Shown one piece after another: positions 6,127-34,662 of a DNA stretch of 64,000 nt. The first letter of the stretch is position 1; each line of letters starts with the position of its first letter. The translations under genes were made by a program, and so were the position numbers. Source of the DNA: an uncultured Gammaproteobacteria bacterium (GTDB taxonomy: Bacteria > Patescibacteriota > Patescibacteriia > SBBC01 > CAIJZX01); contig CAYNGY010000002.1 of the NCBI GenBank assembly GCA_964397195.1, positions 116,012 to 180,011 of the forward strand, written 5' to 3'. Under the pieces are notes generated by a model. That model searched no databases, was not told the origin of the DNA, and was given only the letters and a program-made list of their open reading frames with translations.

Positions 6127-7353
6127 ATGCGGTATCTTTTTGGTTTCCTCGGTCTGGTCGTGGCGATTGGATGTGCGGCTCCGACCGCATGGGCGCTGAC
6201 GCCGACGCAGCGCTATCTTGGATATATGGTTATTTCGGCCGATACGCCGGAAGCGGTGTGGTACGTTGACCCGCGGCGGAAAGAACGAGTTCCGGCCACA
6301 ACACTGACCGACATCCGTACTATTTTGCGGACGCGAGCGGCCAAAGTGAAAGTAGCCGATTTAAAGCGTCTCCCGTTAGTTGGGACCCTGACGGTCGGAG
6401 ATCTGAATTATCGTCGTCAATTAGCGGGTCGATATATTGTTGTGACGGATCGGAAGAATGAAGCGTGGTACATTACGCCCCGCACCAAGCGTCGTATTCG
6501 CATCGGGAACGGGCAGGTGGCGGTTACCTTTGCGCGAAGTCAGGCCCTGACCATTTCGGCCGCGGACCTAGCGGAGATTCCGGCGCCGCCAAATATTCGT
6601 TTGGTAACCGGATCGGTGAAATCAAGTCGTGGTTCGTTTACGACTGAGCGACTCGAGTTTGCCTGGAATGATCCGGGGATACGCATCATGACCGACACGG
6701 CGAATACGAGTGATTGCAAAGGAAATTGCCCGGTCATTTCGCTCGGGTCGTATATCAGTCGTCGGGCAGCAGTGGCGGGGATCCATGGCACCTATTTCTG
6801 TCCGCAAGATTATGGAGCCTGTGCGACAAAACGAAACTCGTACGATTTTCCGGTCTGGAACAGTTTTACTAAATCGTGGCGAAATGAAGGGCGGATAAAA
6901 TATACGTCCCAGCCGATTGTGGCCTTTGATACTTCGAACCGGCCGTTCTTGTATGCTGAATCACGGCAGTTTAAGAGTCAGGCTGGGTTTGCGGCGACGT
7001 TTGCTGATGATTCAATTGCTGCTGGTGGCACGGGTGTTTTACAGGCGGCGTTCAGTAACGGGCCGATGCTCATTCGGAACGGCGTCTATGTTCTCAAGGG
7101 GAACCAGCTTGATACCAAACAGGCGACCGTGAAAAGTGCTCGTGGGGTACTTGGTTGGAAAGGAACGACGATGGTGTTCTTTGTGGTCCATGGGGCCACC
7201 GTCACGGATGCGGCCTCAGTTGCCCAAGCGCTTGGTTTAGAAAACGCCGTCAATCTTGATGGCGGTGGCTCGACAGCGATGTACACGGCCGGACGATACA
7301 TTCTTGGTCCGGGTCGGAATCTTCCGAACGCCATTTTGATTACTCGTCGGTAG
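6127..7353 (+). CDS. phosphodiester glycosidase (NAGPA-like/DUF2233) family secreted protein
   Basis: The track start at 6109 is GTG; the ATG is at 6127. Signal peptide, then C-terminal NGPMLIRNG...VNLDGGGSTAMY, characteristic of phosphodiester glycosidase domains. Confidence 0.65.
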   Translation: MRYLFGFLGLVVAIGCAAPTAWALTPTQRYLGYMVISADTPEAVWYVDPRRKERVPATTLTDIRTILRTRAAKVKVADLKRLPLVGTLTVGDLNYRRQLAGRYIVVTDRKNEAWYITPRTKRRIRIGNGQVAVTFARSQALTISAADLAEIPAPPNIRLVTGSVKSSRGSFTTERLEFAWNDPGIRIMTDTANTSDCKGNCPVISLGSYISRRAAVAGIHGTYFCPQDYGACATKRNSYDFPVWNSFTKSWRNEGRIKYTSQPIVAFDTSNRPFLYAESRQFKSQAGFAATFADDSIAAGGTGVLQAAFSNGPMLIRNGVYVLKGNQLDTKQATVKSARGVLGWKGTTMVFFVVHGATVTDAASVAQALGLENAVNLDGGGSTAMYTAGRYILGPGRNLPNAILITRR

Positions 7354-7356: not shown

Positions 7357-8163
7357 ATGTCGGTTTTTCTCCAGACTCTCAAGCGAGCGGCGCTCGTCTT
7401 CTTGCTGATGGTTATTTTGGGTGGGATTGGTTATGTCGGACTTCGGGCCTGGCGTGGTCATCAGTCTGATCAGCCGAAAAATTTGCCGCCGGAAAAGAAC
7501 GTAGCGGTCGAAAATCGGAATACGACTCCGCGAAATACAAACGTGGCGGTGACGACCAACACGTCGTTGAACACGAATGCGGTTGTGGCCCCGGCGGAAC
7601 TCAATCTTGCCGCACCGTTTACCACTCAAGCGCCTGATGCCAACTGGGACGCTGAACACGAAGAATTTTGTGAGGAAGCGTCGGTACTGATGGCCGCTCG
7701 CGCGCTGCAAGGCCGAGCGATAAAAGATAGTGCTGACGCCGAGGCGGCGCTGCAAACGTTACAGCAATGGGAGATCGATACCTTCGGTTACTTTGAAAGT
7801 ACCACCGCGGTTGAAATCGCTCAGTTGGTGACAGATTTTTATGGTCTGTCGGCTGAGCTCGTGGTCGATCCGACGGTCAGCCAATTAAAATCTATTTTGG
7901 CCAGCGGTAAGTTTATCGTCGTGCCGGCCGCTGGTCGTGAGCTCCACAACCCAAACTTTAAGCAGCCCGGGCCGTTGTATCACGCGTTACTCCTGAAGGG
8001 CTATACGGCTACTACCTTTATTACGAATGACCCGGGGACACGAAAAGGGCAGAATTATACATACCCGACGGATGTCCTGATGCAATCAATTCATGACTGG
8101 AACGGCGGAGATGTTATGAATGGTCGTCGGGTCGTCATCGTGGTGTCCGCTGCTCGCGAGTGA
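7357..8163 (+). CDS. membrane-anchored C39-like (Peptidase_C39_2) domain protein
   Basis: N-terminal TM helix and low-complexity linker, then FCEEASVLMAARAL (candidate Cys motif) and YHALLLKGY...NDPG (candidate His motif) of C39-like cysteine peptidase domains. Confidence 0.5.
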   Translation: MSVFLQTLKRAALVFLLMVILGGIGYVGLRAWRGHQSDQPKNLPPEKNVAVENRNTTPRNTNVAVTTNTSLNTNAVVAPAELNLAAPFTTQAPDANWDAEHEEFCEEASVLMAARALQGRAIKDSADAEAALQTLQQWEIDTFGYFESTTAVEIAQLVTDFYGLSAELVVDPTVSQLKSILASGKFIVVPAAGRELHNPNFKQPGPLYHALLLKGYTATTFITNDPGTRKGQNYTYPTDVLMQSIHDWNGGDVMNGRRVVIVVSAARE

Positions 8164-8176
8164 TATACTCTTTTAT

Positions 8177-10204
8177 ATGATGAGTATTATCGCCTTTCTT
8201 GGGGTAGCTCTGGCGAGCGGCCTGTTTTGGCGTCGCCCGGCCTGGCGTCGACAATTGCTGGCCGGTGGAGCGTTGTATCTGCCGCTTTTTGCGCTGAGTG
8301 TCGCGATGGCCGGCGGTTTTTGGAAGTTTGGCGTCTCGACTGGGGATGCCGTCGTGACGGTGATCGGTATTTTTTTCGCCGGCGTATCACTAAGCGCCTT
8401 GATGGCGGTTGGGTATGAGCGAACCGTGAATCGCTGGTTAACACCGAACCTGCACGTGTCGCGTCGGCAGTTATGGTGGCTCGGCTTGGGACCGATCGTC
8501 GCGCTGGGGATGGTGCTGGGCGGGCTGGCCTTTATTCCGGCGGCGATGGTTGGTTTGTTTGTGAATGCTGTCGTCTTGGTTTGGGTCGGACGGTTTCATC
8601 TGCTCTGGGATGCGGTCATCAGCGCGGTTGGTGTCAGCGCGTGGTATGGACTGCTCTGGTTTATATTGGCGCCCGAAGCCTCGGGCGATGTCGGGCGTTT
8701 TGCGCTCGGTGGTGATGCGCTTGGCGTAACCCTGTGGTCGCGACCGATTGAGTTTGGTGTGGCTGCCATGTTATCGGGTGCCTTGGTTGGTCCGCTTTTT
8801 TCGGCGGCGAAGCCGTGGCGCTGGTGGCAGAAGCGTCCGACGAAATCGGCGACGACCGCGAAAATCGCGATCGGCACAACCGCAATTGTGATGCTAGCAC
8901 TGTGGTTCGGCGCTGTGACGGAGCGATATGTACTAGCCCCGGTCGTGATAGATGTTCAACCCTCGACGGCGGCCACGGCGATTCAGACCACGATGAAAAT
9001 TCGTTTACAGTTTTCTCGACCGATTAATCGCGATTCGCTGACCATGACCATCGACCCTGATGTGGCCGGATCATGGCATTTTTCTATCCCGCAAGATCGT
9101 CTCCATGGCTACCATGCGGCGACGTACGTCTTTGATACGACGCTTGAGCCCGGGACGACCTATGTCGCGACTATTAGCGGGATTCAGTCCGTCTGGGGGA
9201 CGGCGACGAATAATGAGCGTATTACCTTTACGACACGCGCGACTCCCGAAGTAACAGAGGTCCAATACCCGGCAGGAGCATCAACGCTCGATCCATGTGC
9301 GGCGATCACGATTCCGTTTGCGTCGATCGACGACCCGTCAGCGCAGTACGATGCGAAGTTTGAACCGGCCATGCCGTACACCATTGAACGATCGGTTACG
9401 AACGAAGGCCTGATCATTCGTCCCCAAGGTTGTTTTACCGGCGCGGCGACGACGTTGACGATTTACCGCACGAGCGTCATTCGCGATAGTGTGACTGCTG
9501 AAATAATTGCTGAATCGGAGCGGATGGCTATCTACGAAACTCGAGTCTTGTTTACGATTCAACCGGTGACCGTGGCGCCGGTGCTGGGGGTCTCGACGGT
9601 CACGGCGGCCGCGTATACCGCTGTCGGGTCACGGACGATTTTACCGATCAAATTAGATTACCAAGATCAGGCGCTTTCATGCGAAGCGGCGGCGTTAAAG
9701 ATGGCGCTAGCCGGCGTGGGCGTTTTTGTCAGCGAGAAGCAGATTATGGCCAAGGTCGGCTATGATCCAACCCCGCACAAGGGGAGTGTCTGGGGCGATC
9801 CTGATCGCGGATTTGTTGGCAACATTGCCGGCCGACAGAACACGACCGGGTATGGGGTGCACTGGAAACCAATTGCCCGCGCGGCGTCGGCCTGGCGGAC
9901 CGCTCGAACTATTACGAACTTTTCCGCGGCCAAAGTGGCCGCGGAAATCAAAGCCGGCCACCCGGTGATTGTCTGGGGGTTGATGGGAAATGCTCGGCGG
10001 ACACCGTGGCAGACGGCTGATGGCAGAGTCGTCTCGGCTTGGAAGGGTGAGCACGCCCGGACGGTGATCGGGTTTTACGGCCCGGTTGAGGCACCGACGC
10101 ATTTTGTTCTCAATGATCCGATTGCCGGTCGCCTCGTCTGGACGAAGCAGGCGTTTCTGACAAACTCTTCAGCCTTCGGCCGGAGCGGCGTGGTCGTGGA
10201 GTGA
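8177..10204 (+). CDS. polytopic membrane protein with Ig-like domain and C-terminal C39-like peptidase domain
   Basis: About 8 predicted TM helices. The C-terminus has SCEAAALKMALAGVG ... HPVIVWG ... HARTVIGFYG ... FVLNDP, C39-like Cys/His motifs. The start was moved to ATG 8177, after the stop at 8161-8163. Confidence 0.55.
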   Translation: MMSIIAFLGVALASGLFWRRPAWRRQLLAGGALYLPLFALSVAMAGGFWKFGVSTGDAVVTVIGIFFAGVSLSALMAVGYERTVNRWLTPNLHVSRRQLWWLGLGPIVALGMVLGGLAFIPAAMVGLFVNAVVLVWVGRFHLLWDAVISAVGVSAWYGLLWFILAPEASGDVGRFALGGDALGVTLWSRPIEFGVAAMLSGALVGPLFSAAKPWRWWQKRPTKSATTAKIAIGTTAIVMLALWFGAVTERYVLAPVVIDVQPSTAATAIQTTMKIRLQFSRPINRDSLTMTIDPDVAGSWHFSIPQDRLHGYHAATYVFDTTLEPGTTYVATISGIQSVWGTATNNERITFTTRATPEVTEVQYPAGASTLDPCAAITIPFASIDDPSAQYDAKFEPAMPYTIERSVTNEGLIIRPQGCFTGAATTLTIYRTSVIRDSVTAEIIAESERMAIYETRVLFTIQPVTVAPVLGVSTVTAAAYTAVGSRTILPIKLDYQDQALSCEAAALKMALAGVGVFVSEKQIMAKVGYDPTPHKGSVWGDPDRGFVGNIAGRQNTTGYGVHWKPIARAASAWRTARTITNFSAAKVAAEIKAGHPVIVWGLMGNARRTPWQTADGRVVSAWKGEHARTVIGFYGPVEAPTHFVLNDPIAGRLVWTKQAFLTNSSAFGRSGVVVE

Positions 10205-10865: not shown

Positions 10866-11480
10866 TTAGATCTCGGCCAGGACATCATCGTCCTCATCCT
10901 CATCGTCGTTCATGAAGATGGTCAGGCCCCGATCGAGCACGCGCCTCATCAGTGCCTTCCCGAGGATGAAGAGGACGATGAGGAGCATCAGGATGATGGC
11001 GATCGGATGGTACATCAGTCGGTTGAGGCCGACGTACCAGGGGTGACTGAGAATCCACTTCGCTCCGAGCACGATCGGCAGGTTGTGCGCCGTTCGTCCG
11101 ATACACTGGGCGAGGAAGAAGCGACGCGGCGAGTACCGCGTGCTGCCGGCCAGCGCACAGCTGACGTGATCGGGGAGGAGCGTGAAGTTCAGGGCGACCT
11201 GGAGTAGGAACATGTACCGCTTGAGATGGCTCACCAGCCAGCGGAACGTCCGGCTTCTGTTCGCCGTTCGTTCGAGCAGATCGGCGGTGCCATGCTGGTA
11301 CCCCTTGACCAGGTGTAGCATCCCGGCGGCGCCGATGACATTGGCGACGATCAGGACGATCCACCACGGGGTCGTGGCGGTCGCGGTGGCGGTGGCCGCA
11401 GCGCGGTAGATGAAGAAGGGGAACGGGATCGTTGGGGTGATCAGGTTGTACCAGACCATCATCCAAAATTCGCGGTCCAT
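10866..11480 (-). CDS. DedA/VTT-family membrane protein
   Basis: Multi-TM. LLPDHVSCALAGSTRYSPRRFFLAQCIGRTAHNLPIVLGAKW resembles the DedA motif (PGVRT..P..AG...M.Y.RF......G). The C-terminus is acidic. Confidence 0.45.
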   Translation of the reverse strand: MDREFWMMVWYNLITPTIPFPFFIYRAAATATATATTPWWIVLIVANVIGAAGMLHLVKGYQHGTADLLERTANRSRTFRWLVSHLKRYMFLLQVALNFTLLPDHVSCALAGSTRYSPRRFFLAQCIGRTAHNLPIVLGAKWILSHPWYVGLNRLMYHPIAIILMLLIVLFILGKALMRRVLDRGLTIFMNDDEDEDDDVLAEI

Positions 11481-11590
11481 GCGGTTCTCCCGGTTGATTG
11501 TCGAAGGGCGTATCCGGGGTGACCTTACCCCTGCCCGGAGGCGGTTGTCAATCCAAGGCGGTTCGACAATCGCGGATAGGCGTGATATCC

Positions 11591-11613
11591 TTAATGAGAG
11601 TAACTCTCATTAA
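11591..11613. promoter_or_regulatory. perfect 23-bp palindrome TTAATGAGAGT-A-ACTCTCATTAA, a candidate Fur-family (PerR/Zur-like) operator
   Basis: Inverted repeat 11+1+11, seen directly, ending 4 nt before the ATG of the Fur-family gene. A second 9-bp inverted repeat ATTGTCGAA/TTCGACAAT lies at 11505-11513 and 11566-11574. Confidence 0.6.
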
Positions 11614-11616
11614 GCT

Positions 11617-11997
11617 ATGATCTACCGACAGAGTCAGCATCGGCAGGCCATACTCCGCGTGGTGAAGTTTTCGGCGGAACCGATGACATCCGGCGAGATT
11701 CACCGTCGGCTCCCGCGAGTGCCTGAGGCGACCCTCTTCCGCAATCTAGAACGTCTCGTCGAGCGGGGAGAAATATTTTTGATCGACGGGATCCCTGGCA
11801 AACGCGGATATGTCGGTCACACCTGGCATGAGGCGGAGTTTACCTGTGTGCAGTGTGGCAAAAAACGCCATTTGAAACACCGATCGCTGCCGGGGTACGT
11901 TGACCGCAAAATGTTTGGGCATCAGGAAATTTTTACCACGCAACTGATGGCGCAGGGACGCTGTGGCACCTGTGCGAAGAAAGGGCCGCGACGATGA
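11617..11997 (+). CDS. perR: Fur-family transcriptional regulator (PerR-like)
   Basis: 126 aa. QAILRVV...ATLFRNLERLVERGEI is a winged-helix region, and HTWHEAEFTCVQCG...C..C are metal-binding motifs. The gene lies next to a peroxiredoxin and the suf operon, which suggests a peroxide-sensing role; that role is inference. Confidence 0.75.
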   Translation: MIYRQSQHRQAILRVVKFSAEPMTSGEIHRRLPRVPEATLFRNLERLVERGEIFLIDGIPGKRGYVGHTWHEAEFTCVQCGKKRHLKHRSLPGYVDRKMFGHQEIFTTQLMAQGRCGTCAKKGPRR

Positions 11998-12452
11998 AAA
12001 CGATGCTCGGCCAACCGGCGCCGGACTTTACTCTCAACGATCAGGAGGGGAATGTTGTGTCGTTGGCACATTTTCACGGTCAGCACCCGGTCCTCTTGGT
12101 TTTTTATCCCGGCGATGATACGCCCGGGTGTACCGTACAACTGTGTGCAATTCGGGACTCTTGGTCGGCGTTTCAGGCGTATCATGTGGCGGTCTACGGG
12201 ATTAATCCGGGAAATGCTGAGTCGCATACAACATTTTGGCGTCATCATGGCTTAAAAACGCCGCTGCTCGTTGATACCGATGCGGTCGTGACTCGGGCCT
12301 ACGGCGCGATGAAGAAGTTTTTTCGAACGGAGATTGTTAACCGGACGGTGGTGTTGATCGACCGGGACGGTATGATTCGCGCGTATTGGCGGGGGATGCC
12401 CTCGACCGAAACAATCCTCGCCGCGATTCGTGAGTTGCCTGCCCATGTCTGA
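11994..12452 (+). CDS. bcp: thiol peroxidase/peroxiredoxin, Bcp type (AhpC/TSA family)
   Basis: APDFTLNDQEGNVVSLAHFHGQHPVLLVFYPGDDTPGCT, with the peroxidatic Cys in the TPGCT motif. Confidence 0.85.
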   Translation: MKTMLGQPAPDFTLNDQEGNVVSLAHFHGQHPVLLVFYPGDDTPGCTVQLCAIRDSWSAFQAYHVAVYGINPGNAESHTTFWRHHGLKTPLLVDTDAVVTRAYGAMKKFFRTEIVNRTVVLIDRDGMIRAYWRGMPSTETILAAIRELPAHV

Positions 12453-13179
12453 GTTTCAGATTCGGGATCTAGCGGTACGGGTCGGCGAGAAGCCGATTCT
12501 GCGTGGAGTGACGCTTGATGTTCGCCCGGGGGAAGTCCATGCCCTGATGGGGCCGAATGGATCCGGGAAGTCGACGCTAGCGGCGACGCTGACGGGCCAT
12601 CCGGGCTATACCGTGACCGGCGGGTCGGCGGCAATTGATGGACACGACCTCTTGGCGATGACGCCCGATGCGCGTTCGCGGGCCGGAATTTTTTTGTCAT
12701 TTCAGTATCCCCTCGAGATTCCGGGATTACGATACGGACAGTTCTTGCATGCTGCGCTACAGGCTCATCGCGGGACGGACTGGTCGATGCAACAATCGTA
12801 TGCGCTGATTGCCGAGCGGCTAAAACTGCTCGGACTTGATGACGCGTTGCTCGAGCGGTCGTTGAATGAAGGATTCTCTGGTGGTGAGAAAAAACGAGCC
12901 GAGATGTTACAACTGGCGGTTCTCGAGCCGGACTGGTGCATTCTTGATGAGACGGATTCGGGATTAGATATCGATGCTCTCAAGATTGTGGCGAGCAGTA
13001 TTAATGCGTTGCGGTCATCCGATCGAGGCTGGCTGATCATTACCCATTATCGACGTTTACTCGATTTGGTACGGCCCGACCGAGTTTCCGTTATGACTGA
13101 TGGGAAAATTGTGCGAACCGGTGGTCCGGAATTAGTGGCTGATTTGGAACAACATGGATATGCGTCGGCGCGTGAATAA
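12445..13179 (+). CDS. sufC: Fe-S cluster assembly ATPase SufC
   Basis: Walker A GPNGSGKST, ABC signature FSGGEKKR, Walker B ILDETDSGLD. The start was moved to the ATG at 12445 (MSEFQIRDL). Confidence 0.9.
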   Translation: MSEFQIRDLAVRVGEKPILRGVTLDVRPGEVHALMGPNGSGKSTLAATLTGHPGYTVTGGSAAIDGHDLLAMTPDARSRAGIFLSFQYPLEIPGLRYGQFLHAALQAHRGTDWSMQQSYALIAERLKLLGLDDALLERSLNEGFSGGEKKRAEMLQLAVLEPDWCILDETDSGLDIDALKIVASSINALRSSDRGWLIITHYRRLLDLVRPDRVSVMTDGKIVRTGGPELVADLEQHGYASARE

Positions 13180-13269: not shown

Positions 13270-14676
13270 ATGAGCCTGCCTCTCCCAGCGGCGCTGGCAA
13301 CCGATCGGTATCAGTACGGGTTCGCCATGCCGGATTCGTCGATTCTGACCTCGGGACGAGGGTTAACCGACGCGACGATTAAGAATATTTCGGCGTGGAA
13401 GAAAGAACCGGCCTGGATGACTGAACAGCGACTGAAAGCCCACGCGGTGTTTTTGGCCAAGCCCATGCCGCCGTGGGGTGCGGATCTGTCCGGGTTACCG
13501 TTTGAGGATCTGACATATTATTTGCGTCCGGCGGAGGCGGTGGCGCGTTCGTGGGATGAGGTGCCGTCGGATATTCGATCGACGTACGATCGGATTGGTG
13601 TACCGGAAGCGGAAAAAAAGTATTTGGCGGGCGTCGGCGCACAGTATGATAGTGAGGTGATCTATCACTCCATCCAGGACATCTTAAAAAAACAGGGCGT
13701 CATATTTACCGATATGGATACGGCTCTGCGCGAGTATCCGGAGATTGTGCAGCAGTATTTTGGTACGCTTATCCCGGCAGCGGATAATAAATTTTCTGCA
13801 CTGAACTCCGCGGTTTGGTCCGGCGGGTCGTTTGTCTATGTGCCGGCCGGAGTCCATGTTGATTTGCCGCTCCAAGCTTATTTTCGGATCAACGCGCGCT
13901 CGATGGGACAGTTTGAACGGACACTGATTGTCGCCGAACCTGGAAGCTCCGTCCACTATGTAGAAGGGTGTACCGCGCCGATTTACTCAACGGCGTCGTT
14001 GCATGCGGCAGTGGTGGAAATATTTGTGAAGCCTGGCGCGAAGGTGCGGTATACGACCATTCAAAATTGGTCGAAGGATGTCTACAATTTAGTCACCAAG
14101 CGGGCGCAGGTGGGGGAAGAGGGTGTGATGGAATGGATTGACGGGAATTTGGGTTCGCGGGTGACCATGAAATATCCGAGCGTTTATCTAGTTGGACGGA
14201 AGGCGCATGGTGAAGTGCTGTCGTTGGCCATGGCCGGAGCGGATCAGCATCAGGACGCGGGCGGGAAGGCGATTCATGTCGCACCGGAAACATCGTCGAT
14301 CATTACCTCAAAATCGGTGTCTCGGAATGGCGGCCGAACGTCGTACCGCGGGCTCGTCCACATTGCCCCGACGGCCCATGACTCGAAATCGAGCGTCAAG
14401 TGTGATGCCCTGCTCATGGACGATCGATCACGATCGGATACGTACCCAACGATGAAAGTTCGGGCCAAGCGAGTCACCCTTGGTCATGAAGCCTCGGTCT
14501 CAAAAGTCGGGGAGGAGCAGTTGTTTTATATGCGTTCGCGCGGATTTGACGAAGCGGCGGCGACGGGGCTGATTGTTGGTGGATTTTTGGATCCGATCGT
14601 TCGAGAGCTTCCCTTTGAATATGCCGTTGAGTTAAATAAATTGATTTCATTAGAAATGGAAGGGAGTGTGGGATGA
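13270..14676 (+). CDS. sufB: Fe-S cluster assembly protein SufB
   Basis: 468 aa with the conserved SufB/D core (GxxVxxxxxEI..., HxAxxxxIHxA region). Confidence 0.85.
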   Translation: MSLPLPAALATDRYQYGFAMPDSSILTSGRGLTDATIKNISAWKKEPAWMTEQRLKAHAVFLAKPMPPWGADLSGLPFEDLTYYLRPAEAVARSWDEVPSDIRSTYDRIGVPEAEKKYLAGVGAQYDSEVIYHSIQDILKKQGVIFTDMDTALREYPEIVQQYFGTLIPAADNKFSALNSAVWSGGSFVYVPAGVHVDLPLQAYFRINARSMGQFERTLIVAEPGSSVHYVEGCTAPIYSTASLHAAVVEIFVKPGAKVRYTTIQNWSKDVYNLVTKRAQVGEEGVMEWIDGNLGSRVTMKYPSVYLVGRKAHGEVLSLAMAGADQHQDAGGKAIHVAPETSSIITSKSVSRNGGRTSYRGLVHIAPTAHDSKSSVKCDALLMDDRSRSDTYPTMKVRAKRVTLGHEASVSKVGEEQLFYMRSRGFDEAAATGLIVGGFLDPIVRELPFEYAVELNKLISLEMEGSVG

Positions 14677-15182
14677 CGAGACCCGGAGACAAAGACTGGT
14701 TACCCTACGATGAATATTTACGTCGGGCAGCGCGCAAGCGATGTTCGGCGGGGGCGATTTTTTTGAACGAGGCTGGGGAGATGTTGCTCGTTAAACCGGG
14801 GTACAAAGAGGGTTGGACTATCCCTGGCGGTGCCGTTGATACGCAGGAATCGCCTCGCAATGCTTGTGTCCGTGAAGTGGCCGAGGAACTGGGTCTAAAT
14901 ATCCCACTGCCGGAATTTATCGCGGTTATTCATGTGCCTCGACCGGAGAAAAATGACGAGGTGCTCCATTTTATGTTTTTTGGTGGCACGCTTTCATCTC
15001 AACAAATTCATGAGATAAAAATTCAGCCGAGTGAATTAGATGAATATCGATTCGTACCCATCGATGAAGTCGGCCAGTATGCGAATAAAAACTTCACACA
15101 GGTTGTTCCACAACTAATGCAAGCCATAGAAGGACACCGACCGGTATTCATCGACGAACCTGGGAGAACGCAAGCATCATGA
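14673..15182 (+). CDS. NUDIX hydrolase
   Basis: Nudix box GGAVDTQESPRNACVREVAEELGL (Gx5Ex7REVxEExG). Confidence 0.8.
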   Translation: MTRPGDKDWLPYDEYLRRAARKRCSAGAIFLNEAGEMLLVKPGYKEGWTIPGGAVDTQESPRNACVREVAEELGLNIPLPEFIAVIHVPRPEKNDEVLHFMFFGGTLSSQQIHEIKIQPSELDEYRFVPIDEVGQYANKNFTQVVPQLMQAIEGHRPVFIDEPGRTQAS

Positions 15183-15814
15183 GTAACGACGAACTTCGCC
15201 AAACCTACAATCGGATTGCGGATGACTGGCATGCCGATCATCTGAAAGACACGTGGTGGGCTGAGGGCACAGAAGCGTTTCTTACGTTCCTCAAAAAGGG
15301 CGACCACATTCTTGATCTTGGTTGTGCTGGCGGCGTGAAATCCAAGTTTTTGATCGACCATGGTTTTCGTGTGGTTGGATCTGACCTCTCAGAAGAGATG
15401 ATTCGGATTGCGAAAAGCTACGAGCCACGAGGTACGTTCATGCAGATGGATATACTACAAACTAGTTCACTGAAAGAACGGTTTGATGGGGTGTTTATTC
15501 AGGCCGTACTCCTTCATATCCCAAAGATCCAAATTCCTACAGCCGTACATCAGGCTGTGAGCGTTTTAAAACCGGGCGGAATATTCTACGTTGCGGTAAA
15601 AGAGCAGCGTGTGGGACAGCCGGCCGAGGAGATAAAAATGGAACATGATTATGGATATCCCTACCAACGTTTCTTTAGTTATTTTACGACCGGAGAAATT
15701 CGCGGACATATCGAGCAGTCCGGATGTCGCGTCCTGCGCGAGATTCGGACCGTTTCAGGCAAGACGGTATGGATTCAATTGATTGCCCAGAGAATGACGA
15801 CGCCGATTGTATGA
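15179..15814 (+). CDS. class I SAM-dependent methyltransferase
   Basis: Motif I ILDLGCAGG. Confidence 0.75.
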   Translation: MSNDELRQTYNRIADDWHADHLKDTWWAEGTEAFLTFLKKGDHILDLGCAGGVKSKFLIDHGFRVVGSDLSEEMIRIAKSYEPRGTFMQMDILQTSSLKERFDGVFIQAVLLHIPKIQIPTAVHQAVSVLKPGGIFYVAVKEQRVGQPAEEIKMEHDYGYPYQRFFSYFTTGEIRGHIEQSGCRVLREIRTVSGKTVWIQLIAQRMTTPIV

Positions 15815-16278
15815 ATATCCGAGCCGCCACTATAGCCGATCATCCCGCGCTCTATGCGCTCGGTTTGGCGACGCCTGAATTTCAGGTTGGGGCTGAGGGT
15901 CCGTTTATGGAGCCGGACGAGTTTTTGTCGGCCATCGAAAATCCTCATGGAACGTTTCTCTTAGCGGAGGATGGCCAGGTTATCCTTGGGTTTGTCTATG
16001 CCAGCCGACAAGATGTCGAGCGTGGTCCGCGAACATCCTGGGCGTGCCTTGTGTACCTAGTCGTCGAGTCAGCCCATCGGAAACGCGGAGTGGCGCGGAA
16101 ATTATATACGGCTTGCATTAACGACCTTCGCACGCACGGCGTGCGCTCCGTGTACGCGTGGGCAAACACCGAGAGTGACGGTAGTATTGTTTCCTTCTTG
16201 AAGAAGGAGGGGTATGCCGCTGGACATCGGTACGTTTGGATGGACAAAGATATTGGGATTCAACAAGATGCCTCCTAA
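15811..16278 (+). CDS. GNAT family N-acetyltransferase
   Basis: The ATG at 15811 overlaps the upstream stop (ATGA). Acetyl-CoA-binding motif HRKRGVARKLY. Confidence 0.7.
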   Translation: MNIRAATIADHPALYALGLATPEFQVGAEGPFMEPDEFLSAIENPHGTFLLAEDGQVILGFVYASRQDVERGPRTSWACLVYLVVESAHRKRGVARKLYTACINDLRTHGVRSVYAWANTESDGSIVSFLKKEGYAAGHRYVWMDKDIGIQQDAS

Positions 16279-16873
16279 TCATTTCAAGACCGTTAATGTG
16301 TCGCAGGATACCCAGATTCAGGACAATCTCCATGAATCGGATATTCGTTATACCGTCGCCGCCGGCGTTTGTTTCCAGCTCTGGCTCGACGCGCTGGGCG
16401 GACAATCTGAACCACGGGTGCGCGAGATCGTTTTAGCGGAGCCTGGGGCGCGGGCCGAGATTCGTGGCGTCTTCTCCGGGCGAGCAAAAGAGTCGTTACG
16501 TCTCCAGCTTGATACGATCCACCAAGCGCCGCATACCACTGCCGCGACCGATTTTCGGGCGGTACTGCGCGATGCGGCGGTGCTCGTGTTTCGTGGAATG
16601 ATCAAGATTGCACCCGGGGCGCAGGGGAGCCATGACTTTCTGCGGCAAGACTCGTTGATCTTGAGCGATGAAGCAAAGGCGGATTCTATTCCGGGGCTTG
16701 AAATTGAGGCCAATGATGTCAAAGCGTCCCATGGCGCGACCGCGAAACCCCTTGATCCAGAAATGATTCATTATGTGCAGAGTCGCGGAGTCCCCGCATC
16801 GGTCGCCGAAACGATGCTGATCGAATCATTTCTCCAACCTGTACGTTTCGCGAAAAGTATCGTAGGATCGTAA
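16268..16873 (+). CDS. sufD: short SufD-like protein (SufBD C-terminal core only)
   Basis: GLEIEANDVKASHGATAKPLDPEMIHYVQSRG is the conserved SufB/D C-terminal motif. At about 200 aa it is half the usual SufD length. The track start 16214 is an alternative. Confidence 0.6.
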   Translation: MPPNHFKTVNVSQDTQIQDNLHESDIRYTVAAGVCFQLWLDALGGQSEPRVREIVLAEPGARAEIRGVFSGRAKESLRLQLDTIHQAPHTTAATDFRAVLRDAAVLVFRGMIKIAPGAQGSHDFLRQDSLILSDEAKADSIPGLEIEANDVKASHGATAKPLDPEMIHYVQSRGVPASVAETMLIESFLQPVRFAKSIVGS

Positions 16874-16876: not shown

Positions 16877-17389
16877 ATGGCACAGATTCGTGTACGTTCA
16901 GCTCGCGTTGGGGATACAGCCGATGTCGTTACGCTTTTTCAGGAGGCAGTGGTGTCTATTCCCGATTATTCGCCAAAATTACGGCGGCTCTTTTTTCGTA
17001 AATATCGGTCCGAGATCGTCACTAAACGGATTCGTGACCGGGCGGCATACTGTTTGCTGGCGGTGGATGGAAAAACCGTGGTTGGGTTTATCTGGGGGAT
17101 GCCGATGCGGGCCACAGAAGACGGCGTCTACTGGATGAACTGGGTTGGTGTTCATGCCGCTTACCGTCGGCGTGGGGTGGCGCGGCGAATGATGAAGGCG
17201 CTCGAGGCGGAGCTGCGGAAACATCAATTCCACAAACTTTGGTTTAATATTGATCCAAAGAATTCTCGCTCAGCGAAGACGTTTGCCGCTCTCGGATACC
17301 ACCAGATTGCCCGTGTGAAGCATCATTGGTACGGTCATGATGCGTTGCTGTGGGAAAAAGATTTGATGCCAACTAAGAAGGGGATGTAG
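16877..17389 (+). CDS. GNAT family N-acetyltransferase
   Basis: WVGVHAAYRRRGVARRMM, the Q/RxxGxG/A acetyl-CoA motif. Confidence 0.75.
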   Translation: MAQIRVRSARVGDTADVVTLFQEAVVSIPDYSPKLRRLFFRKYRSEIVTKRIRDRAAYCLLAVDGKTVVGFIWGMPMRATEDGVYWMNWVGVHAAYRRRGVARRMMKALEAELRKHQFHKLWFNIDPKNSRSAKTFAALGYHQIARVKHHWYGHDALLWEKDLMPTKKGM

Positions 17390-17393: not shown

Positions 17394-18593
17394 ATGAAAC
17401 ATGTTCGTTCGGATTTCCCGATTCTCGCGGCTAATGCTGGTCTTCGATATCTTGACTCCACCGCTTCCAGCTTGAAGCCGACGGTCGTGATTGAAGCTGA
17501 GGCTGGTTTTTATCGCCAGCATGGAGTGAATGTGCATCGCGGCGTGTACGCGTTATCACAATCGGCGACCGAAAGCTATGAATCGTCACGCGAAGTTATT
17601 CGTGGCTTTATCCATGCTCGCTCGACGGCGGAGATTATTTTTACCCGCAATACAACTGAAGCCATCAATCTGGTGGCCCGAACATTCGGGATGACGCTTC
17701 AAGCGGGGGACGTCGTTGTCCTGAGCGAGATGGAACACCATTCCAATATTGTACCGTGGCAGCAACTTCGGGATGAGCGGGGGATTGAACTGCGATGGAT
17801 TCCCGTGACCGACGCTGGAGATCTCGATCTCAGTGCCTTAGATGCGCTGCTCGTCGGGGCAAAACTCGTGGCGGTGACGCAGATGTCAAATGTGCTCGGA
17901 GTGGTCAACGATGTTAAGGAAATTGCGGCCAAGGCCCACGCGCATGGTGCGCTCATGCTTGTCGATGGTGCACAATCTGTTCCACATATGCCGGTGGATG
18001 TTCAGGATCTCGATTGTGATTGGTTAGTATTCTCCGGGCATAAAATGTGTGGCCCGATGGGAATCGGTGTGCTCTATGGACGGCAGTCCGTGCTGGAAGC
18101 CATGCCGCCGTTTCTGCGAGGTGGCGATATGATTCTTTCGGTCACGAAAGAGGCGGCGACATGGAATGAGTTGCCGTGGAAGTTCGAAGCCGGAACGCCG
18201 AATGCCGCTGGAGCTGTTGCATTAGGGGTGGCCACACAGTATTTACAGAAAATTGGCATGCAAACAATTTGGGAACACGACCTGGCTTTAGCGGCGCACG
18301 GGCGAGAGGTGTTGACGGCTATCTCCGGCCTACGGTTGCTCGGTGCCGACGCCCTATCACCACGCGGGGCGATATTCTCGTTTGATCTGAGCGGCGCTCA
18401 TCCGCATGATATCGGGTCACTCTTGGATGAAAAACAGATCGCGGTTCGTGCTGGCCATCACTGTGCCCAGCCGCTTCACGCACGATTCGGGCTCGGAGCG
18501 ACGACACGGGCGAGTGGGTATCTCTATACAACGGAAGACGAACTCACCGCATTGGCGAGCGAACTTGATTCCATCCGGACTCTGTTCTCATGA
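17394..18593 (+). CDS. sufS: cysteine desulfurase SufS (class II aminotransferase)
   Basis: PLP-lysine region LVFSGHKMCGPMGIGVLYG and the C-terminal RAGHHCAQPL with the active-site Cys. Confidence 0.9.
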   Translation: MKHVRSDFPILAANAGLRYLDSTASSLKPTVVIEAEAGFYRQHGVNVHRGVYALSQSATESYESSREVIRGFIHARSTAEIIFTRNTTEAINLVARTFGMTLQAGDVVVLSEMEHHSNIVPWQQLRDERGIELRWIPVTDAGDLDLSALDALLVGAKLVAVTQMSNVLGVVNDVKEIAAKAHAHGALMLVDGAQSVPHMPVDVQDLDCDWLVFSGHKMCGPMGIGVLYGRQSVLEAMPPFLRGGDMILSVTKEAATWNELPWKFEAGTPNAAGAVALGVATQYLQKIGMQTIWEHDLALAAHGREVLTAISGLRLLGADALSPRGAIFSFDLSGAHPHDIGSLLDEKQIAVRAGHHCAQPLHARFGLGATTRASGYLYTTEDELTALASELDSIRTLFS

Positions 18594-18964
18594 ATTCGAA
18601 TATGTATCAACAGCAAATTCTCGATCACGCGCGTCATCCGCATAACTTTGGCATCCTCGAGGGTGCGACGGCTACGGCGGAGAAAGTGAATCCGCTGTGT
18701 GGCGATGAGGTGACGTTTTTTTTGGAGTTTGGTGATGATCAACGCGTCACACAGGCCAAGTTTTCCGGTCGCGGTTGTGCTATTTCGCAAGCGGCGGCGT
18801 CAATGCTCACCGATGCCCTGATCGGGAAGAGCCGCGAAGAAATTTCTGCGCTTGGACCGGATGAAATGAAAGCGCTACTCGGAGTTGATGTAAACCCGGC
18901 GCGGATCACCTGTGCGACACTAGGACTCCAGGCGGCACAACGCGCCGTGACCGTGCCCGAGTAG
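18590..18964 (+). CDS. sufU: SufU/IscU-like sulfur acceptor/scaffold
   Basis: HARHPHNFG...NPLCGDEV...SGRGCAISQAAAS, the three conserved Cys of SufU. Confidence 0.85.
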   Translation: MNSNMYQQQILDHARHPHNFGILEGATATAEKVNPLCGDEVTFFLEFGDDQRVTQAKFSGRGCAISQAAASMLTDALIGKSREEISALGPDEMKALLGVDVNPARITCATLGLQAAQRAVTVPE

Positions 18965-18974: not shown

Positions 18975-19010
18975 GGCCCCGACTCGCGTGAGCGAGCCGG
19001 AGCTTTTTTG
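18975..19010. terminator. bidirectional rho-independent terminator
   Basis: Hairpin CCGACTCGC-GTGA-GCGAGCCGG followed by TTTTTT on the plus strand and preceded by AAAAA, between the convergent genes sufU and 19014(-). Confidence 0.7.
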
Positions 19011-19776: not shown

Positions 19777-20361
19777 CTAGGGGAGGAGACGGAGGACTGA
19801 CCACCAGGCCGAGATATAGTCGGCGCGGCGATTTTGATGTTTTACGTAGTAGGCGTGTTCCCAGACGTCGAGGCCGATCAGGGGTACGTGCTGGTCTAGA
19901 ATCGGGGAATCTTGATTGGGTGTGGCACGCAGCGCAAGCTTTCCGGCTTGATCACGGACGAGCCACATCCATCCACTGCCAAAAACCGCCGCGGCGCCGT
20001 CGCTAAACTTCTTCTTAAAGTCATCAAGTGAGCCAAACGTACTTGTAATTTCGGCAATCAAGCTCGCATCGATCTTTTTTTCCGGACCGATGATATTCCA
20101 GAAGAAAGAGTGGTTGGCATGCCCCCCGCCGTGATTTCGGATTGCGAGGCGGACTGTGTCAGGAATATCGAGCGTTGCTAGCTGCCCGAGGAGCGATCCG
20201 AGCTCAAGCGACTGCAAGTGCGGGTACGGTTCAAGCGCGGCATTCAGCTTGTCTACGTATGTCTGATGATGTTTGGTATGGTGAATACGCATCGTTTCCG
20301 TATCAATATACGGTTCGAGCGCGTCGTAGTCGTATCCGAGGGCGGGGAGGGTGTAGGACAT
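19777..20361 (-). CDS. sodA: Fe/Mn superoxide dismutase
   Basis: YTLPALGYDYDALEPYID, HHTKHHQTYV and DVWEHAYY. The start was trimmed to the ATG at 20361 (MSYTLP); the track ORF extends to 20466. Confidence 0.9.
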   Translation of the reverse strand: MSYTLPALGYDYDALEPYIDTETMRIHHTKHHQTYVDKLNAALEPYPHLQSLELGSLLGQLATLDIPDTVRLAIRNHGGGHANHSFFWNIIGPEKKIDASLIAEITSTFGSLDDFKKKFSDGAAAVFGSGWMWLVRDQAGKLALRATPNQDSPILDQHVPLIGLDVWEHAYYVKHQNRRADYISAWWSVLRLLP

Positions 20362-20450
20362 AGAAAAGATGAATGATGAGGGTTTAGACATTGTACAGGA
20401 AAAAACCATTCTCCGTGACCGTTGTGGATTCGAGATAAATATTGTATAGT

Positions 20451-22277
20451 ATGAACGAGTTTTCAAACGTTGTGATCACCTCAAAAACCCAACAAATATC
20501 TCTCGCCTTCGGTGCCCTCGCGGTTATAGTGACCGTTAGTGTGCTTGGTATTGGTCGCGTTGCAGAGGCGCAATCCACAACCTCGCCGAAACTCTATATT
20601 TACCAGGGCGTCATCTCGATCAGTCCGGCCGCCGGGCAGGTAATGGAGTTGGGGGCAAATGGGACGACGATTGCGACGAATGGAAATATTGCGCTTCGAC
20701 CGTCGAATGGGACGGTGACCTTCGGGCCGGCAAATGCCATTGATGAGGGCGGCGAGCTTGATCTTCAAGGAGCCTCGTCGTCGTATCCAACGTGGGGGAT
20801 CGATTCGTACGTTGATTTGTTCGCCACTCCCGATGTTGTCTCATACCTACGTTTCTATCACGGCGCAAGTGTTCCATTGAAGGTGGGAAATGACGGAAAA
20901 ACGAGTATCAATGGCCAACTGTGCTTTGGGGCCGGGCTTGGGGACTGTATCTCAAACTGGTCGTCGGTTGGTGGAGGTGTTGACACCTTGTCGTCACTCT
21001 TGAGCCCGATAAATAGCGGTAATACCTCGATGACCCCAGTTGTTCTTGGGCAAGGTAGTGGGCCGGTGACCGCGACGGCCCGTTTTGATATCAGTACCAC
21101 GTCGAGTGCCTTTAATGCCTATCCGTCCCTCAACGCGGTTTCGGCACACAGTTCAGTGGTTAGCGATCCGAAAGGTGCGGCCATCCGGGCGGAGAACCCA
21201 AATGGAGGGTGGGCGGGATACTTTAGCGGCCGGGTGGGGGTGTTTCAGCCGGGTGCTTCTGATCCCGGATTTGCCGACGCGACGGTAGTTCGACTCTCGG
21301 GAGATCATACGTTTCAATCATCGCAAGGCGTGTTGAATGTTACGAACTTGCGCCCGAGTTCCTACGCGGCGCGTTTTGTTGGCGCGGTCGAAATTACCGG
21401 GAGCGGTGGTCGGGTGCCTGGCGCTGCGTCAACCGGTGTGGACGCCGATGCCGCGCTCGACATATTTAATTCGACATCGACGGAAGTATTTCGAGCGACG
21501 AGCCCTTCGCTCAACGGGGCGGCCATTTGGGCCCAAGCGGGGAATCCTTACACAAATGGCATGGTCACCTCAGCGTTCTATGGCCAGGGTGGCGCTTGGC
21601 CAAGCCCCGCCTCGGATCAGGTCGGCCTGCAATACGCCGGGTTCTTCACGGGTGCAAATGTGGTTGAAGGCGTTCTTTCTATCCAGCCGTATGATGCGTC
21701 TGACCGATGGGGATTATTAATACAGGGGATGACCCGAAGAGCGAATGTCGCTTTTAATGGTGCTAAACAAACGGCTGAGATGCAGGTGTGTGAGCTGAGT
21801 AGCAATACCTGTTATGGAAAGTACGTTGCCACGATTGGTCATGGGACGCGTGGTGGGGACCGGGCGACAACACAACTCTGTTACGAAAGTGGCGGAGCGG
21901 TGACCTGCCGAGCGATGTATGTGAGCCAGTCGGGTTGTGTTGGGACCGGGTCGGTCGGACTTAAATTGGGAAGTAGCTCGTCGGCGGCCCGGAGTTATTT
22001 CGTGACGCCAGTCCCACAAACTCCTTCTTGCCGCGGTGCGGAGTTGGGTGCACCGTACCAAGAGTATGTGGCGAATGCCGGTGATTCCCCGTATCGGGCG
22101 GCGCCGACAGCTCAGCAATTTTGTGTGTCGGGGACGCCGACGCTCGTCGCGCCAAATTATGCCCAAGATCAGCTCCATGGCGGCTGTTACCTCGTCTCAA
22201 CTTCTCCGCCGGCGTTCCAAGCGTACGCGGTGACTCTACCAACTACTGAGTTAGTACAAACGCTTGAAATCCGTTAA
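20451..22277 (+). CDS. secreted protein, tandem paralog family member A (unrecognised family)
   Basis: The track start at 20442 is TTG; the ATG is at 20451. Signal peptide, then the module YQGVISISPAAGQVMELGANGTTIATNG, an internal ENPNGGWAGYFSG, and a C-terminal TQLCYESGGAVTC Cys motif. Confidence 0.6.
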   Translation: MNEFSNVVITSKTQQISLAFGALAVIVTVSVLGIGRVAEAQSTTSPKLYIYQGVISISPAAGQVMELGANGTTIATNGNIALRPSNGTVTFGPANAIDEGGELDLQGASSSYPTWGIDSYVDLFATPDVVSYLRFYHGASVPLKVGNDGKTSINGQLCFGAGLGDCISNWSSVGGGVDTLSSLLSPINSGNTSMTPVVLGQGSGPVTATARFDISTTSSAFNAYPSLNAVSAHSSVVSDPKGAAIRAENPNGGWAGYFSGRVGVFQPGASDPGFADATVVRLSGDHTFQSSQGVLNVTNLRPSSYAARFVGAVEITGSGGRVPGAASTGVDADAALDIFNSTSTEVFRATSPSLNGAAIWAQAGNPYTNGMVTSAFYGQGGAWPSPASDQVGLQYAGFFTGANVVEGVLSIQPYDASDRWGLLIQGMTRRANVAFNGAKQTAEMQVCELSSNTCYGKYVATIGHGTRGGDRATTQLCYESGGAVTCRAMYVSQSGCVGTGSVGLKLGSSSSAARSYFVTPVPQTPSCRGAELGAPYQEYVANAGDSPYRAAPTAQQFCVSGTPTLVAPNYAQDQLHGGCYLVSTSPPAFQAYAVTLPTTELVQTLEIR

Positions 22278-31933: not shown

Positions 31934-32010
31934 GGCTAACGTTTGCGGCTCATGCGCGGCGGACCCTGAGCGAAGTCGAAGAGGGAGTGGCGGATAGACG
32001 CTGTTAGGTA
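31934..32010. repeat. attC-like site A (77 bp imperfect palindrome; ends GGCTAAC...GTTAGGT)
   Basis: CTAACGTTTGCGGCTCATGCGCGGCGGACCCTGAGCGAAGTCGAAGAGGGAGTGGCGGATAGACGCTGTTAGG, with internal inverted symmetry. It lies immediately downstream of the hydrolase stop at 32022. Confidence 0.55.
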
Positions 32011-32021
32011 GCGTTGTCCGT

Positions 32022-32603
32022 CTATGACTTCAGACATTCCTCTAGCAGTTCGGGAAATTCGACAGTGCCTAAGTCACTAAGACAAAAATGTCCTTTATTG
32101 GCAAACTCTTGATAGGTCGCCTGATCAATGTTTTCTCGAATGAGATCAATTGTTTTTAGAACACTTTCATCATCATTTTTTGAGTAAAACACAGAAACAC
32201 CGCCGGTTCGTGAAACGAGATCTCGATCTATTGAAAAGTTAAAGAAATCCGCTGTGTCAGAGTGAGGGTTATTGGAAGGGTTGGTCCAGGGTGCAACGAG
32301 AACCACCTTACCGACGCGAAGATCTTTATGTTCGCTGAGGTATCGGAGTAAAAAACCACCACCACAGCTATGACCGACTAGCATTGTTTCGGGGGTCAAT
32401 TCAAAGCGCTCCAATTCTTTCTTCCATAGAGCATAGCGCGGTTGCCATGGTGTTGGAATTTCCAGTGCGACAGTAAAAATATCCTTGAGCATCAGTTGCT
32501 TCGAAAGCCAAGGAAACCAATGATCATTGCTATTTGTTGGACGTACCGGATCGTAGTATTCTTCTCGATCAGGTCGTCCGGGAATTAGTATCGTGTTTCT
32601 CAT
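32022..32603 (-). CDS. alpha/beta hydrolase of the YdeN/RBBP9-like serine hydrolase type
   Basis: ILIPGRPD...NDHWFPWL at the N-terminus and the nucleophile motif LVGHSCGGG. The start was trimmed to the ATG at 32603. Confidence 0.6.
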   Translation of the reverse strand: MRNTILIPGRPDREEYYDPVRPTNSNDHWFPWLSKQLMLKDIFTVALEIPTPWQPRYALWKKELERFELTPETMLVGHSCGGGFLLRYLSEHKDLRVGKVVLVAPWTNPSNNPHSDTADFFNFSIDRDLVSRTGGVSVFYSKNDDESVLKTIDLIRENIDQATYQEFANKGHFCLSDLGTVEFPELLEECLKS

Positions 32604-32812
32604 AGACTTGAATAATATTGGTGGCCGGTCGATTTCACACAACGTCCGCGGATATGAGAAGTTGCTGCTTCGTTTCGGCGGTACAATTCTACCACCGCCG
32701 GGGCGAAGCAGCAATTTGCACGTAGGAAATTGGGTTGGGTTTCTTCTTGTGACATCTTGATGTTTAGACAACACCCGACAGTTTCCTGCCGGGTGCTTTG
32801 GAGCATTCTTGT

Positions 32813-33442: not shown

Positions 33443-33542
33443 GTCGACCTCTTTCGTGGGTACGTATACAGCGTGCCGTGCTACTCTACACTTTTTTTTA
33501 AAAAAGTCAAGTCCCTTTGCATGAACGGCGGTGTGACTAGGG

Positions 33543-33592
33543 GTAACGAAAAACCAACCCCGATTTCCTCCGTCTCCTATCCGCTGTTAGAC
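33543..33592. repeat. degenerate attC-like remnant (GGTAACG...GCTGTTAGAC)
   Basis: A short element with TAACG at the left and CCGCTGTTAGAC at the right, directly abutting attC-like site B. This could be an empty cassette. Confidence 0.25.
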
Positions 33593-33615
33593 GATGCGGT
33601 GCGCAGCGGAGTTTC

Positions 33616-34550: not shown

Positions 34551-34662
34551 AATATATACCTAGTTATTCCTTGCTCACCCTACATCGATTATTAAAGTAA
34601 TATTTTCCGTGGCTTTTAATATCACTGATGTTTTATATATGTACTAAGATAAAAGTTTATTT

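Follow-up and report, generated by a model that had tools for sequence, protein, structure and literature searches.

What is a long, perfect palindrome doing between a promoter and the start codon of a small regulator gene that heads an operon for assembling iron-sulfur (Fe-S) clusters? The question is raised by a stretch of 64,000 nucleotides (64 kb; hereafter the window) of contig CAYNGY010000002.1, from a genome placed by GTDB in the Patescibacteriota, in which a Fur-family gene carrying such a palindrome immediately upstream is followed by bcp and the suf genes. Judged from sequence comparisons, the palindrome is likely to be the operator of the adjacent Fur-family protein, which would act as an autoregulated, operon-local repressor of suf. 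Binding by the adjacent protein, repression, and the signal are the parts of this reading that we infer. The argument turns on the following features.

11590 to 11614, no strand assigned: candidate operator, a perfect 12-1-12 palindrome with a Fur-box core (symmetry, position weight matrix (PWM) score, conservation at 15 other loci).
11617 to 11997, plus strand: predicted Fur-family repressor gene, 126 amino acids (fold, profiles, residues).
11563 to 11568, plus strand: predicted -35 hexamer TCGACA (sigma-70 scan), inside the right arm of a second dyad.
11583 to 11591, plus strand: predicted extended -10 element TG-n-TATCCT (sigma-70 scan), its last two nucleotides (nt) overlapping the palindrome.
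11496 to 11571, no strand assigned: the second dyad, an inverted repeat whose right arm is the -35 region.
10866 to 11480, minus strand: divergent VTT/DedA-domain gene (domain match).

The first-pass annotation of this DNA had drawn attention to a 23-bp dyad, TTAATGAGAGT-A-ACTCTCATTAA (that is, TTAATGAGAGTAACTCTCATTAA), at 11591-11613. The dyad is present as described, and its symmetry continues one base further on each side, so that arms at 11590-11601 and 11603-11614 make up a perfect 12-1-12 palindrome, CTTAATGAGAGT A ACTCTCATTAAG. Its distance to the ATG at 11617, first put at 4 nt, is 3 nt for the 23-bp form and 2 nt for the 25-bp form. The number of such dyads expected by chance is 0.00, as estimated from 100 dinucleotide-preserving shuffles with up to three mismatches allowed, and among the 12-1-12 palindromes of the window the one at 11590-11614 is the only perfect one. 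Read in a 7-1-7 register, the core is TGAGAGT n ACTCTCA, with the flanks CTTAA and TTAAG extending the box to 25 bp. Elsewhere in the window, at 9922-9946, a Big_5/Peptidase_C39_2 gene (8120-10204) contains a GC-rich 12-1-12 palindrome, TTCCGCGGCCAA A GTGGCCGCGGAA, in which there is one mismatch.

An unbiased sigma-70 scan of 11350-11750, in which two promoter-like sites were found against 0.2 expected, placed a promoter directly upstream: TCGACA (11563-11568), a 17-nt spacer and TATCCT (11586-11591) preceded by TG, with 9/12 matches. The predicted -10 thus shares its last two nucleotides with the left end of the palindrome. The palindrome would cover the expected transcription start and almost the whole leader, which is the classical position of a repressor operator. 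A leaderless mRNA was considered on inspection of the sequence and rejected, as no acceptable -10 lies at the right distance from ATG 11617. The second dyad noticed in the first pass is likewise real, with its coordinates (11505-11513 and 11566-11574) in error by 4-9 nt; its arms, GATTGTCGAA (11496-11505) and TTCGACAATC (11562-11571), form a perfect inverted repeat of 10 nt with 56 nt between them, and we estimate that about 0.05 perfect repeats of this length would be expected in a region of 340 nt. The predicted -35 hexamer lies within the right arm, and the repeat is flanked by a second, non-nested, imperfect 9-nt pair (11508-11516 and 11573-11581). The left arm was also tried as a -35 for the divergent VTT gene and discarded, since the spacing would put the -10 on the start codon; the scan found no minus-strand promoter in the same interval. 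The GGGGT/ACCCC hairpin described earlier for this region exists (11516-11520 and 11527-11531) as a trivial 5-bp stem.

The evidence that ties the palindrome to the regulator comes from its relatives. The comparative set comprised the DNA of 15 further distinct loci with regulator orthologues at 30-63% protein identity, among them those named here L001, L002, L005-L007, L009-L012, L016 and L133-L136 (Patescibacteria/Candidatus Kerfeldbacteria). At every one of these loci (15/15) a palindrome built in the same way is found in the stretch from a -10-like hexamer to the regulator ATG; 13 of these palindromes are clear, and those of L011 and L135 are degenerate. The arms differ from lineage to lineage, as in L005 (CTTAATGAGAAT C ATTCTCATTAAG), L012 (CTTAATGGGACT G AGTCCCATTAAG), L007 (CTTATTGACACA T TGTGTCAATAAG), L002 (CTTAAGTGAGAGT T ACTCTCACTTAAG) and L133 (CTTATTGAGAAC G ATTCTCAATAAG), yet the inner positions vary symmetrically (GAGT/ACTC, GAAT/ATTC, CACA/TGTG, GACT/AGTC), and what is kept is the TGA...TCA core together with the T/A at the outer positions. 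The -35 sequence TCGACA(A) recurs in L001, L009 and L010 and takes the form TTGAC(G/C) in L006, L007, L012 and L133, and the -10-like hexamer adjoins the palindrome at most orthologous loci, abutting it in some and lying about 7 nt upstream in L134-L136. The remaining intergenic DNA is not alignable between loci, and the upstream neighbour is a VTT gene in the window, a receiver-like gene in L005, and a 42-residue membrane peptide in L001, L002, L009, L010 and L012. Because these surroundings differ, the palindrome is taken to belong to the regulator gene. The left arm of the second dyad has no counterpart among these relatives, whose upstream neighbours differ.

Two further observations concern the same intergenic regions. 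The membrane peptide just upstream of the regulator promoter is conserved (about 42 residues, consensus ...STKTHPAVAVYLLVAIGFIVGT.A.IAYLF.GK; L001 7766-7893, L002 7760-7888, and in L009, L010 and L012). In L006 (638-662) and L134 (~6981-7005) the regulator start codon falls inside the right arm of the palindrome, so that the predicted operator of these two loci takes in the start of translation in addition to that of transcription.

Comparison with known binding sites identifies the motif. Aligned with the published Fur 19-mer AATGATAATnATTATCATT (PMC1698941), the window site AATGAGAGTaACTCTCATT, written AATGAGAGTnACTCTCATT against the 19-mer, matches at 14/18 positions, and the L005 site matches at 16/18 by hand count and at 12/14 over the 15-mer core. 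TGAGAGT-n-ACTCTCA agrees with the Fur 15-mer TGATAATnATTATCA at 10/14 positions and with the PerR box TTATAATnATTATAA (PMC11631912) at 8/14. At the second base, which tells these two boxes apart, 14 of the 15 sites have G rather than T. The window operator matches a Zur 15-mer poorly, at 6/14. A metagenome scan with a degenerate palindrome pattern returned, among the matches listed, mostly CTTAATGAGAATCATTCTCATTA-like sites on unrelated contigs without a regulator homologue, together with one new orthologous locus, L016; directly downstream of the matches sampled were genes for FeoA (three cases), an FTR1 iron permease and solute-binding proteins. Because the matches sit upstream of genes of these kinds, the palindrome reads as an ordinary iron-Fur box. 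An "expanded Fur box" with 3 bp inserted per half-site (register against GATAATGATAATCATTATC) was rejected, as the metagenome matches gave the register AATGAnAATnATTnTCATT.

The protein encoded next to this box is a Fur-family member, an assignment that is secure on sequence and model grounds because three lines of evidence agree: precomputed PF01475 matches are carried by nearly all listed relatives; the clade profile matched 21 Fur-family sequences in the PDB (best E = 5.9e-16); and the top 50 Foldseek matches in the PDB are all Fur, PerR, Zur, Mur or Nur (probability 1.00, template modelling score ~0.5). The window protein matches HTH_20 with a score of 26 against a cut-off of 27. Its AlphaFold model, with a predicted local distance difference test score (pLDDT) of 72 overall and 86-92 in the DNA-binding domain, suggests a DNA-binding domain of the winged helix-turn-helix type, whose recognition helix carries R42, followed by a C-terminal alpha/beta dimerisation domain. 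Within the family, the regulator and its relatives form by sequence a small, distinct clade: in an exhaustive profile search about 20 representatives at E < 1e-16 were followed, after a steep gap, by the general Fur continuum near 1e-10. Close relatives are very few: a single-sequence search of 5.8 billion proteins gave 7 clusters, and the clade profile brought the number to about 75. The GTDB genomes that match the clade are Patescibacteria/Kerfeldbacteria metagenome-assembled genomes, and the only names given to its members are "transcriptional repressor [Candidatus Kerfeldbacteria]" at NCBI and, at JGI, generic labels that read either Fur-family or "Fe2+ or Zn2+ uptake regulation protein".

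Overall similarity failed to place this clade in a Fur subfamily, as its profile lies equally far from structures of Zur, Fur and PerR (61.7, 59.1 and 57.9 bits), and Foldseek did not discriminate among Fur-family structures. Individual residues were surveyed in 83 distinct clade members. R42 is invariant (83/83); C77, C80 and C116 occur in 83/83 and C119 in 79/83, forming two CxxC motifs (C77xxC80 and C116xxC119); H71 is found in 65/83 and H68 in 53/83. Such a Cys4 site normally holds structural zinc, and is possessed by many Fur family members, not all. In a hidden Markov model (HMM) alignment, the Bacillus subtilis PerR ligands H37, D85, H91, H93 and D104 correspond to P22, V66, E72, E74 and H85, and these five canonical sensor positions are variable across the 83 members. 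The sub-clade of the window keeps Glu, Glu and His at three of the five classical-site positions, in addition to H68 and H71. The iron-Fur regulatory site is not kept either, the histidine of the DNA-binding domain being replaced by Pro22 and HxH by ExE, which is itself variable in the clade.

The residue that specifies the PerR box, N61, aligns to R42. Published rules assign Asn in helix H4 to PerR and Arg to Fur, and Asp at position 103 to PerR and Irr and Glu to Fur and Zur (PMC8638967, citing Caux-Thang 2015 and Parent 2013). With Arg42 in the recognition helix, the DNA read-out is predicted by the H4 rule to be Fur-type, in agreement with the TGA-type box, and the peroxide-sensing apparatus of PerR is, by alignment, absent from the regulator. 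The best NCBIfam matches are PerR models, at scores far under their cut-offs (34.8 against 200 for NF047406; 18.6 against 180 for NF052545). The label "PerR-like" given in the first pass is therefore not supported: the sensor residues are replaced, Asn61 is Arg42 in all 83 members, the operator is nearer to Fur than to PerR, and the PerR models fall below their cut-offs.

Downstream of the regulator, the genes of the proposed transcription unit and the neighbouring sodA are arranged as follows.

11994 to 12452, plus strand: bcp, a Bcp/PrxQ-type thiol peroxidase (Pfam AhpC-TSA, 116.6 bits).
12445 to 13179, plus strand: sufC, an ABC ATPase (Pfam ABC_tran; synteny).
13270 to 14676, plus strand: sufB (Pfam SUFBD_core, 276.9 bits, and SufBD_N).
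14673 to 15182, plus strand: accessory NUDIX gene (domain match).
15179 to 15814, plus strand: accessory S-adenosylmethionine methyltransferase gene (domain match).
About 15811 to 16278, plus strand: first accessory GNAT acetyltransferase gene (domain match).
16214 to 16873, plus strand: short sufD, core domain only (Pfam SUFBD_core, 141.1 bits; TIGR01981 below cut-off).
16877 to 17389, plus strand: second GNAT acetyltransferase gene, within the operon (domain match).
17394 to 18593, plus strand: sufS, cysteine desulfurase (Pfam Aminotran_5, 457.8 bits).
18590 to 18964, plus strand: sufU, NifU_N scaffold or sulfur acceptor, last gene of the unit (Pfam NifU_N, 88.3 bits).
18976 to 19003, no strand assigned: GC-rich hairpin, a likely terminator between the convergent sufU and AAA_33 genes (flagged by the scan on the minus strand).
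19777 to 20466, minus strand: sodA open reading frame as listed, with a TTG start at 20466 (its Pfam domain begins at residue 37).

The gene order first described, regulator followed by Bcp and the Suf genes, stands, as does the 4-nt overlap (ATGA) between the regulator gene and bcp; the overlap between bcp and sufC is 8 nt, with the sufC start most likely at ATG 12445. NCBIfam thiol peroxidase models match the window Bcp below their cut-offs. Each of the 12 loci whose length allows the gene order to be read has the regulator at the head of a same-strand series (bcp)-sufC-sufB-...-sufD-sufS-sufU, with bcp following it in about half of the relatives. Together with the promoter overlap and the conserved position and architecture of the palindrome at orthologues, this supports the earlier proposal that the palindrome is an operator and overlaps the promoter of a Fur-family gene that is autoregulated and heads a bcp-suf operon.

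Several other features of this neighbourhood were recorded. SufD is just ~200 residues long (SUFBD core only) throughout the clade, and the accessory inserts that recur at these places of the suf operon vary among relatives, with GrpB, glyoxalase, a second cysteine desulfurase and further NUDIX genes seen across L002 and L133-L136. The neighbourhood C39-peptidase ... suf ... sodA is conserved, and sodA is convergent to the suf unit also in L001, L002, L133 and L134. Farther along the window, GC content falls from ~0.55 to 0.42-0.48 at 32000-36000, beside a tRNA-Met (35838-35914), which could mark an island or integrated element. From 55068 to 64000 on the plus strand, one frame of at least 2,977 codons stays open and runs off the window end; its C-terminal part carries repetitive, G/T/A/S-rich "GxGTLxLxG"-like segments typical of giant surface proteins, and an excisionase/MerR-like helix-turn-helix motif near its start possibly belongs to a separate small gene.

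The reach of the regulator was assessed with a PWM built from the orthologous sites, which was run over the window and the longer loci of 8 relatives. The window operator scores 36-40 bits, against shuffled-window maxima averaging 10.1 and reaching 17.5 at the highest, and each scanned locus holds exactly one strong site (24-40 bits; 20.0 in L011 and 16.5 in L135, where it is degenerate). No second operator was found in the window or in these relatives' loci, the runners-up scoring at most 14.8 bits, within the range of the shuffles. Weak matches inside sufC (TTCTTGATGAGAC.GATTC..G.TTAGAT; window 12943-12967, L002 ~9874, L011 ~2412) were set aside as a coding coincidence in the conserved stretch ILDETDSGLD. 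The sodA gene likely starts at ATG 20361, with an extended -10, TGTACAAT, upstream. The "half-site" once proposed there, CTCATCATT on the minus strand at 20380-20372, 10-19 nt before this ATG, was rejected, as it lacks a symmetric partner and has no PWM score; the scan found no operator upstream of sodA in L002 or L134. Nor was a second Fur-family gene found in the window. Within the sequence scanned, the regulator thus appears to be operon-local, and the wider peroxide regulon including sodA that the first-pass annotation had envisaged is not borne out. That annotation had also suggested looking for additional copies of the dyad upstream of stress or metal genes; none lies in the scanned DNA, which leaves the palindrome a candidate operator of a different regulon, namely its own operon.

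These results suggest a mechanism of local control. A dimer of the regulator would occupy the two half-sites (7-1-7 core TGAGAGT-n-ACTCTCA with flanking TTAA), and the bound repressor would occlude the -10/+1 region and block RNA polymerase. Repression would then cover one long transcription unit consisting of the regulator gene, bcp, sufC, sufB, sufD, sufS, sufU and the interspersed accessory genes, and loss of DNA binding would de-repress the whole unit. Several points weigh against this account. The window protein itself scores 21.1 bits against Pfam FUR, whose gathering score is 23.1, and its AlphaFold model is just moderately confident, with a pLDDT of 47-73 in the C-terminal domain. The canonical regulatory metal site is absent, so the residues do not support the classical Fe2+ co-repressor mechanism. 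Internal promoters are possible, for example in the 90-nt gap between sufC and sufB, and the sequence scanned amounts to 64 kb of this genome and 1-16 kb per relative, such that distant regulon members may lie outside it.

As to the signal, our guess, offered tentatively, is that DNA binding may need iron or Fe-S sufficiency, with a metal or cluster as co-repressor, and that iron shortage or oxidative damage may induce Suf and Bcp. We think it unlikely that this Kerfeldbacteria-specific Fur clade is a dedicated sensor of Fe-S status, with C77, C80, C116 and C119 holding a labile Fe-S cluster from Suf; were that so, the protein would be a SufR/IscR analogue on a Fur scaffold, and the Suf product would feed back directly by way of a canonical Fur box. 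The chemistry is conceivable, because a [2Fe-2S] form of E. coli Fur, with its cluster assembled by IscU, has been reported (PMC11001641). Speculatively, the Cys4 site, as the only ligand set conserved throughout the clade, leaves room for thiol-redox or Fe-S sensing.

Other explanations of the locus need to be weighed against an operon-local Fur-type repressor. The regulator might be a PerR-type peroxide sensor that metal-catalysed histidine oxidation frees from a PerR box, with bcp, suf and sodA as its regulon. The co-transcribed Bcp peroxiredoxin and the neighbouring sodA would fit such a role, PerR models give the best NCBIfam similarity, and PerR of Streptococcus mutans represses that organism's sole sufCDSUB operon (PMC11631912). 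Against this stand the replacement of all five PerR ligands at positions that vary over the clade, the invariant Arg in place of the PerR-specific Asn, an operator of TGA rather than TTA type, and the large shortfall of the best PerR model score. The operon lacks bcp in about half of the relatives, and no site lies upstream of sodA in the window, L002 or L134. Taken together, we regard a PerR-type sensor as distinctly improbable.

The two remaining alternatives, both of which we rate as very unlikely, would detach the palindrome from the adjacent protein. In one, it is no DNA operator and acts as an RNA hairpin in the 5' leader, controlling translation or mRNA stability, with its right end (TAAG/TAAGGA) masking the ribosome-binding site. 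RNA beginning at 11590 does fold into an 11-bp stem (-13.9 kcal/mol, z = -2.8), AAGGA(G) closes the right arm 3-8 nt ahead of the ATG in L002, L007, L133 and L136, and symmetric covariation is equally expected of a hairpin. However, the stem requires a transcript that begins no later than 11590, the -10 overlap should put the transcript start inside the left arm, and RNA from ~11598 has no significant structure (z = -0.04). The sequence itself is also conserved beyond what pairing would demand, since T at -7 and A at -9 and -3, counted from the centre, are invariant, as in a Fur box; the asymmetric arms of L009, L010 and L134 would break the stem and keep the 7-1-7 core; and the same motif is a known protein-binding site elsewhere. 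In the other alternative, the box is bound by a different, global Fur encoded elsewhere, and the adjacent small Fur-like protein has another target. The closeness of the box to the universal iron-Fur consensus is what would be expected in that case, but box and regulator gene co-occur in 16/16 loci, and the box changes by lineage with the protein (for example CTTATTGACACA in L007). The window contains no second Fur-family gene, and Patescibacterial genomes are small, at ~1 Mb (the L002 contig is 979 kb). An operator read by the adjacent regulator thus remains our preferred explanation.

Transcription control in the Patescibacteria (Candidate Phyla Radiation), bacteria of ultra-small size, is, to our knowledge, almost wholly uncharacterised by experiment, and our literature searches found nothing on this regulator-operator pair in the group. 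The regulatory logic, repression of suf by Fur, PerR or SufR, is already known. What is new, as far as the alignments go, is a minimal Fur protein that apparently lacks the canonical sensor site, the fixed placement of this regulator at the head of the suf operon throughout a Patescibacteria lineage, and a cleanly defined candidate regulator-operator pair in a group with essentially no characterised regulation. The locus would provide a comparatively validated pair for the only Fe-S assembly system seen in these loci. The Fur box and its Arg-based read-out are kept even in this very divergent, minimal Fur, while the sensory site is not, making the clade a natural test case of how the Fur fold can sense signals of another kind than a mononuclear metal bound at the classical site. 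Being a Fur box, the operator would also make for a convenient heterologous reporter system.

Among characterised systems, PerR (B. subtilis, S. mutans) shares with the regulator described here a predicted role as an autoregulated Fur-family repressor linked to peroxide defence and to the only Suf system, and PerR HMMs are marginally best in overall similarity. It differs in its His37 and His91, which are absent here, in Asn61, which is Arg, in Asp104, whose position holds His or is variable, and in its TTATAAT box, in place of which a TGA-type box is found. Zur (S. coelicolor, 3mwm; Synechococcus, 7ne9) provides the top PDB sequence matches, with both the single sequence and the clade profile, and is similarly compact; on the other hand, the HHHH motif of S. 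coelicolor Zur aligns to H71-E72-A73-E74, the D-site partners are absent, and the operon here is without zinc-uptake genes. SufR offers the same regulatory arrangement, as a dedicated repressor gene with its operator at the suf promoter; in Mycobacterium tuberculosis, the suf operon begins with the gene of SufR (Rv1460), which represses it (PMC6034842), whereas cyanobacterial SufR is encoded divergently from suf. SufR belongs to an unrelated protein family and senses via an Fe-S cluster, whereas the fold here is that of Fur. The iron Fur of E. coli and B. subtilis type differs in several respects: the protein here is short (126 residues), apparently without the N-terminal helix, and does not keep the canonical His/Glu/Asp positions of the regulatory site; there is a single operator at its own operon, with no iron-uptake regulon in the sequence scanned; and the box reaches 25 bp. 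The likenesses to iron Fur are the Fur fold, the two CxxC motifs, the Arg in the recognition helix, and a palindromic box (19 bp, AATGAnAnTnAnTnTCATT, with the 7-1-7 core TGAnAnT) that overlaps the promoter. They extend to the suf operon as a target, which E. coli Fur represses (there as sufABCDSE) by binding a Fur box in the suf promoter (PMC11001641) and which the Kerfeldbacterial regulator is predicted to repress in the same manner.

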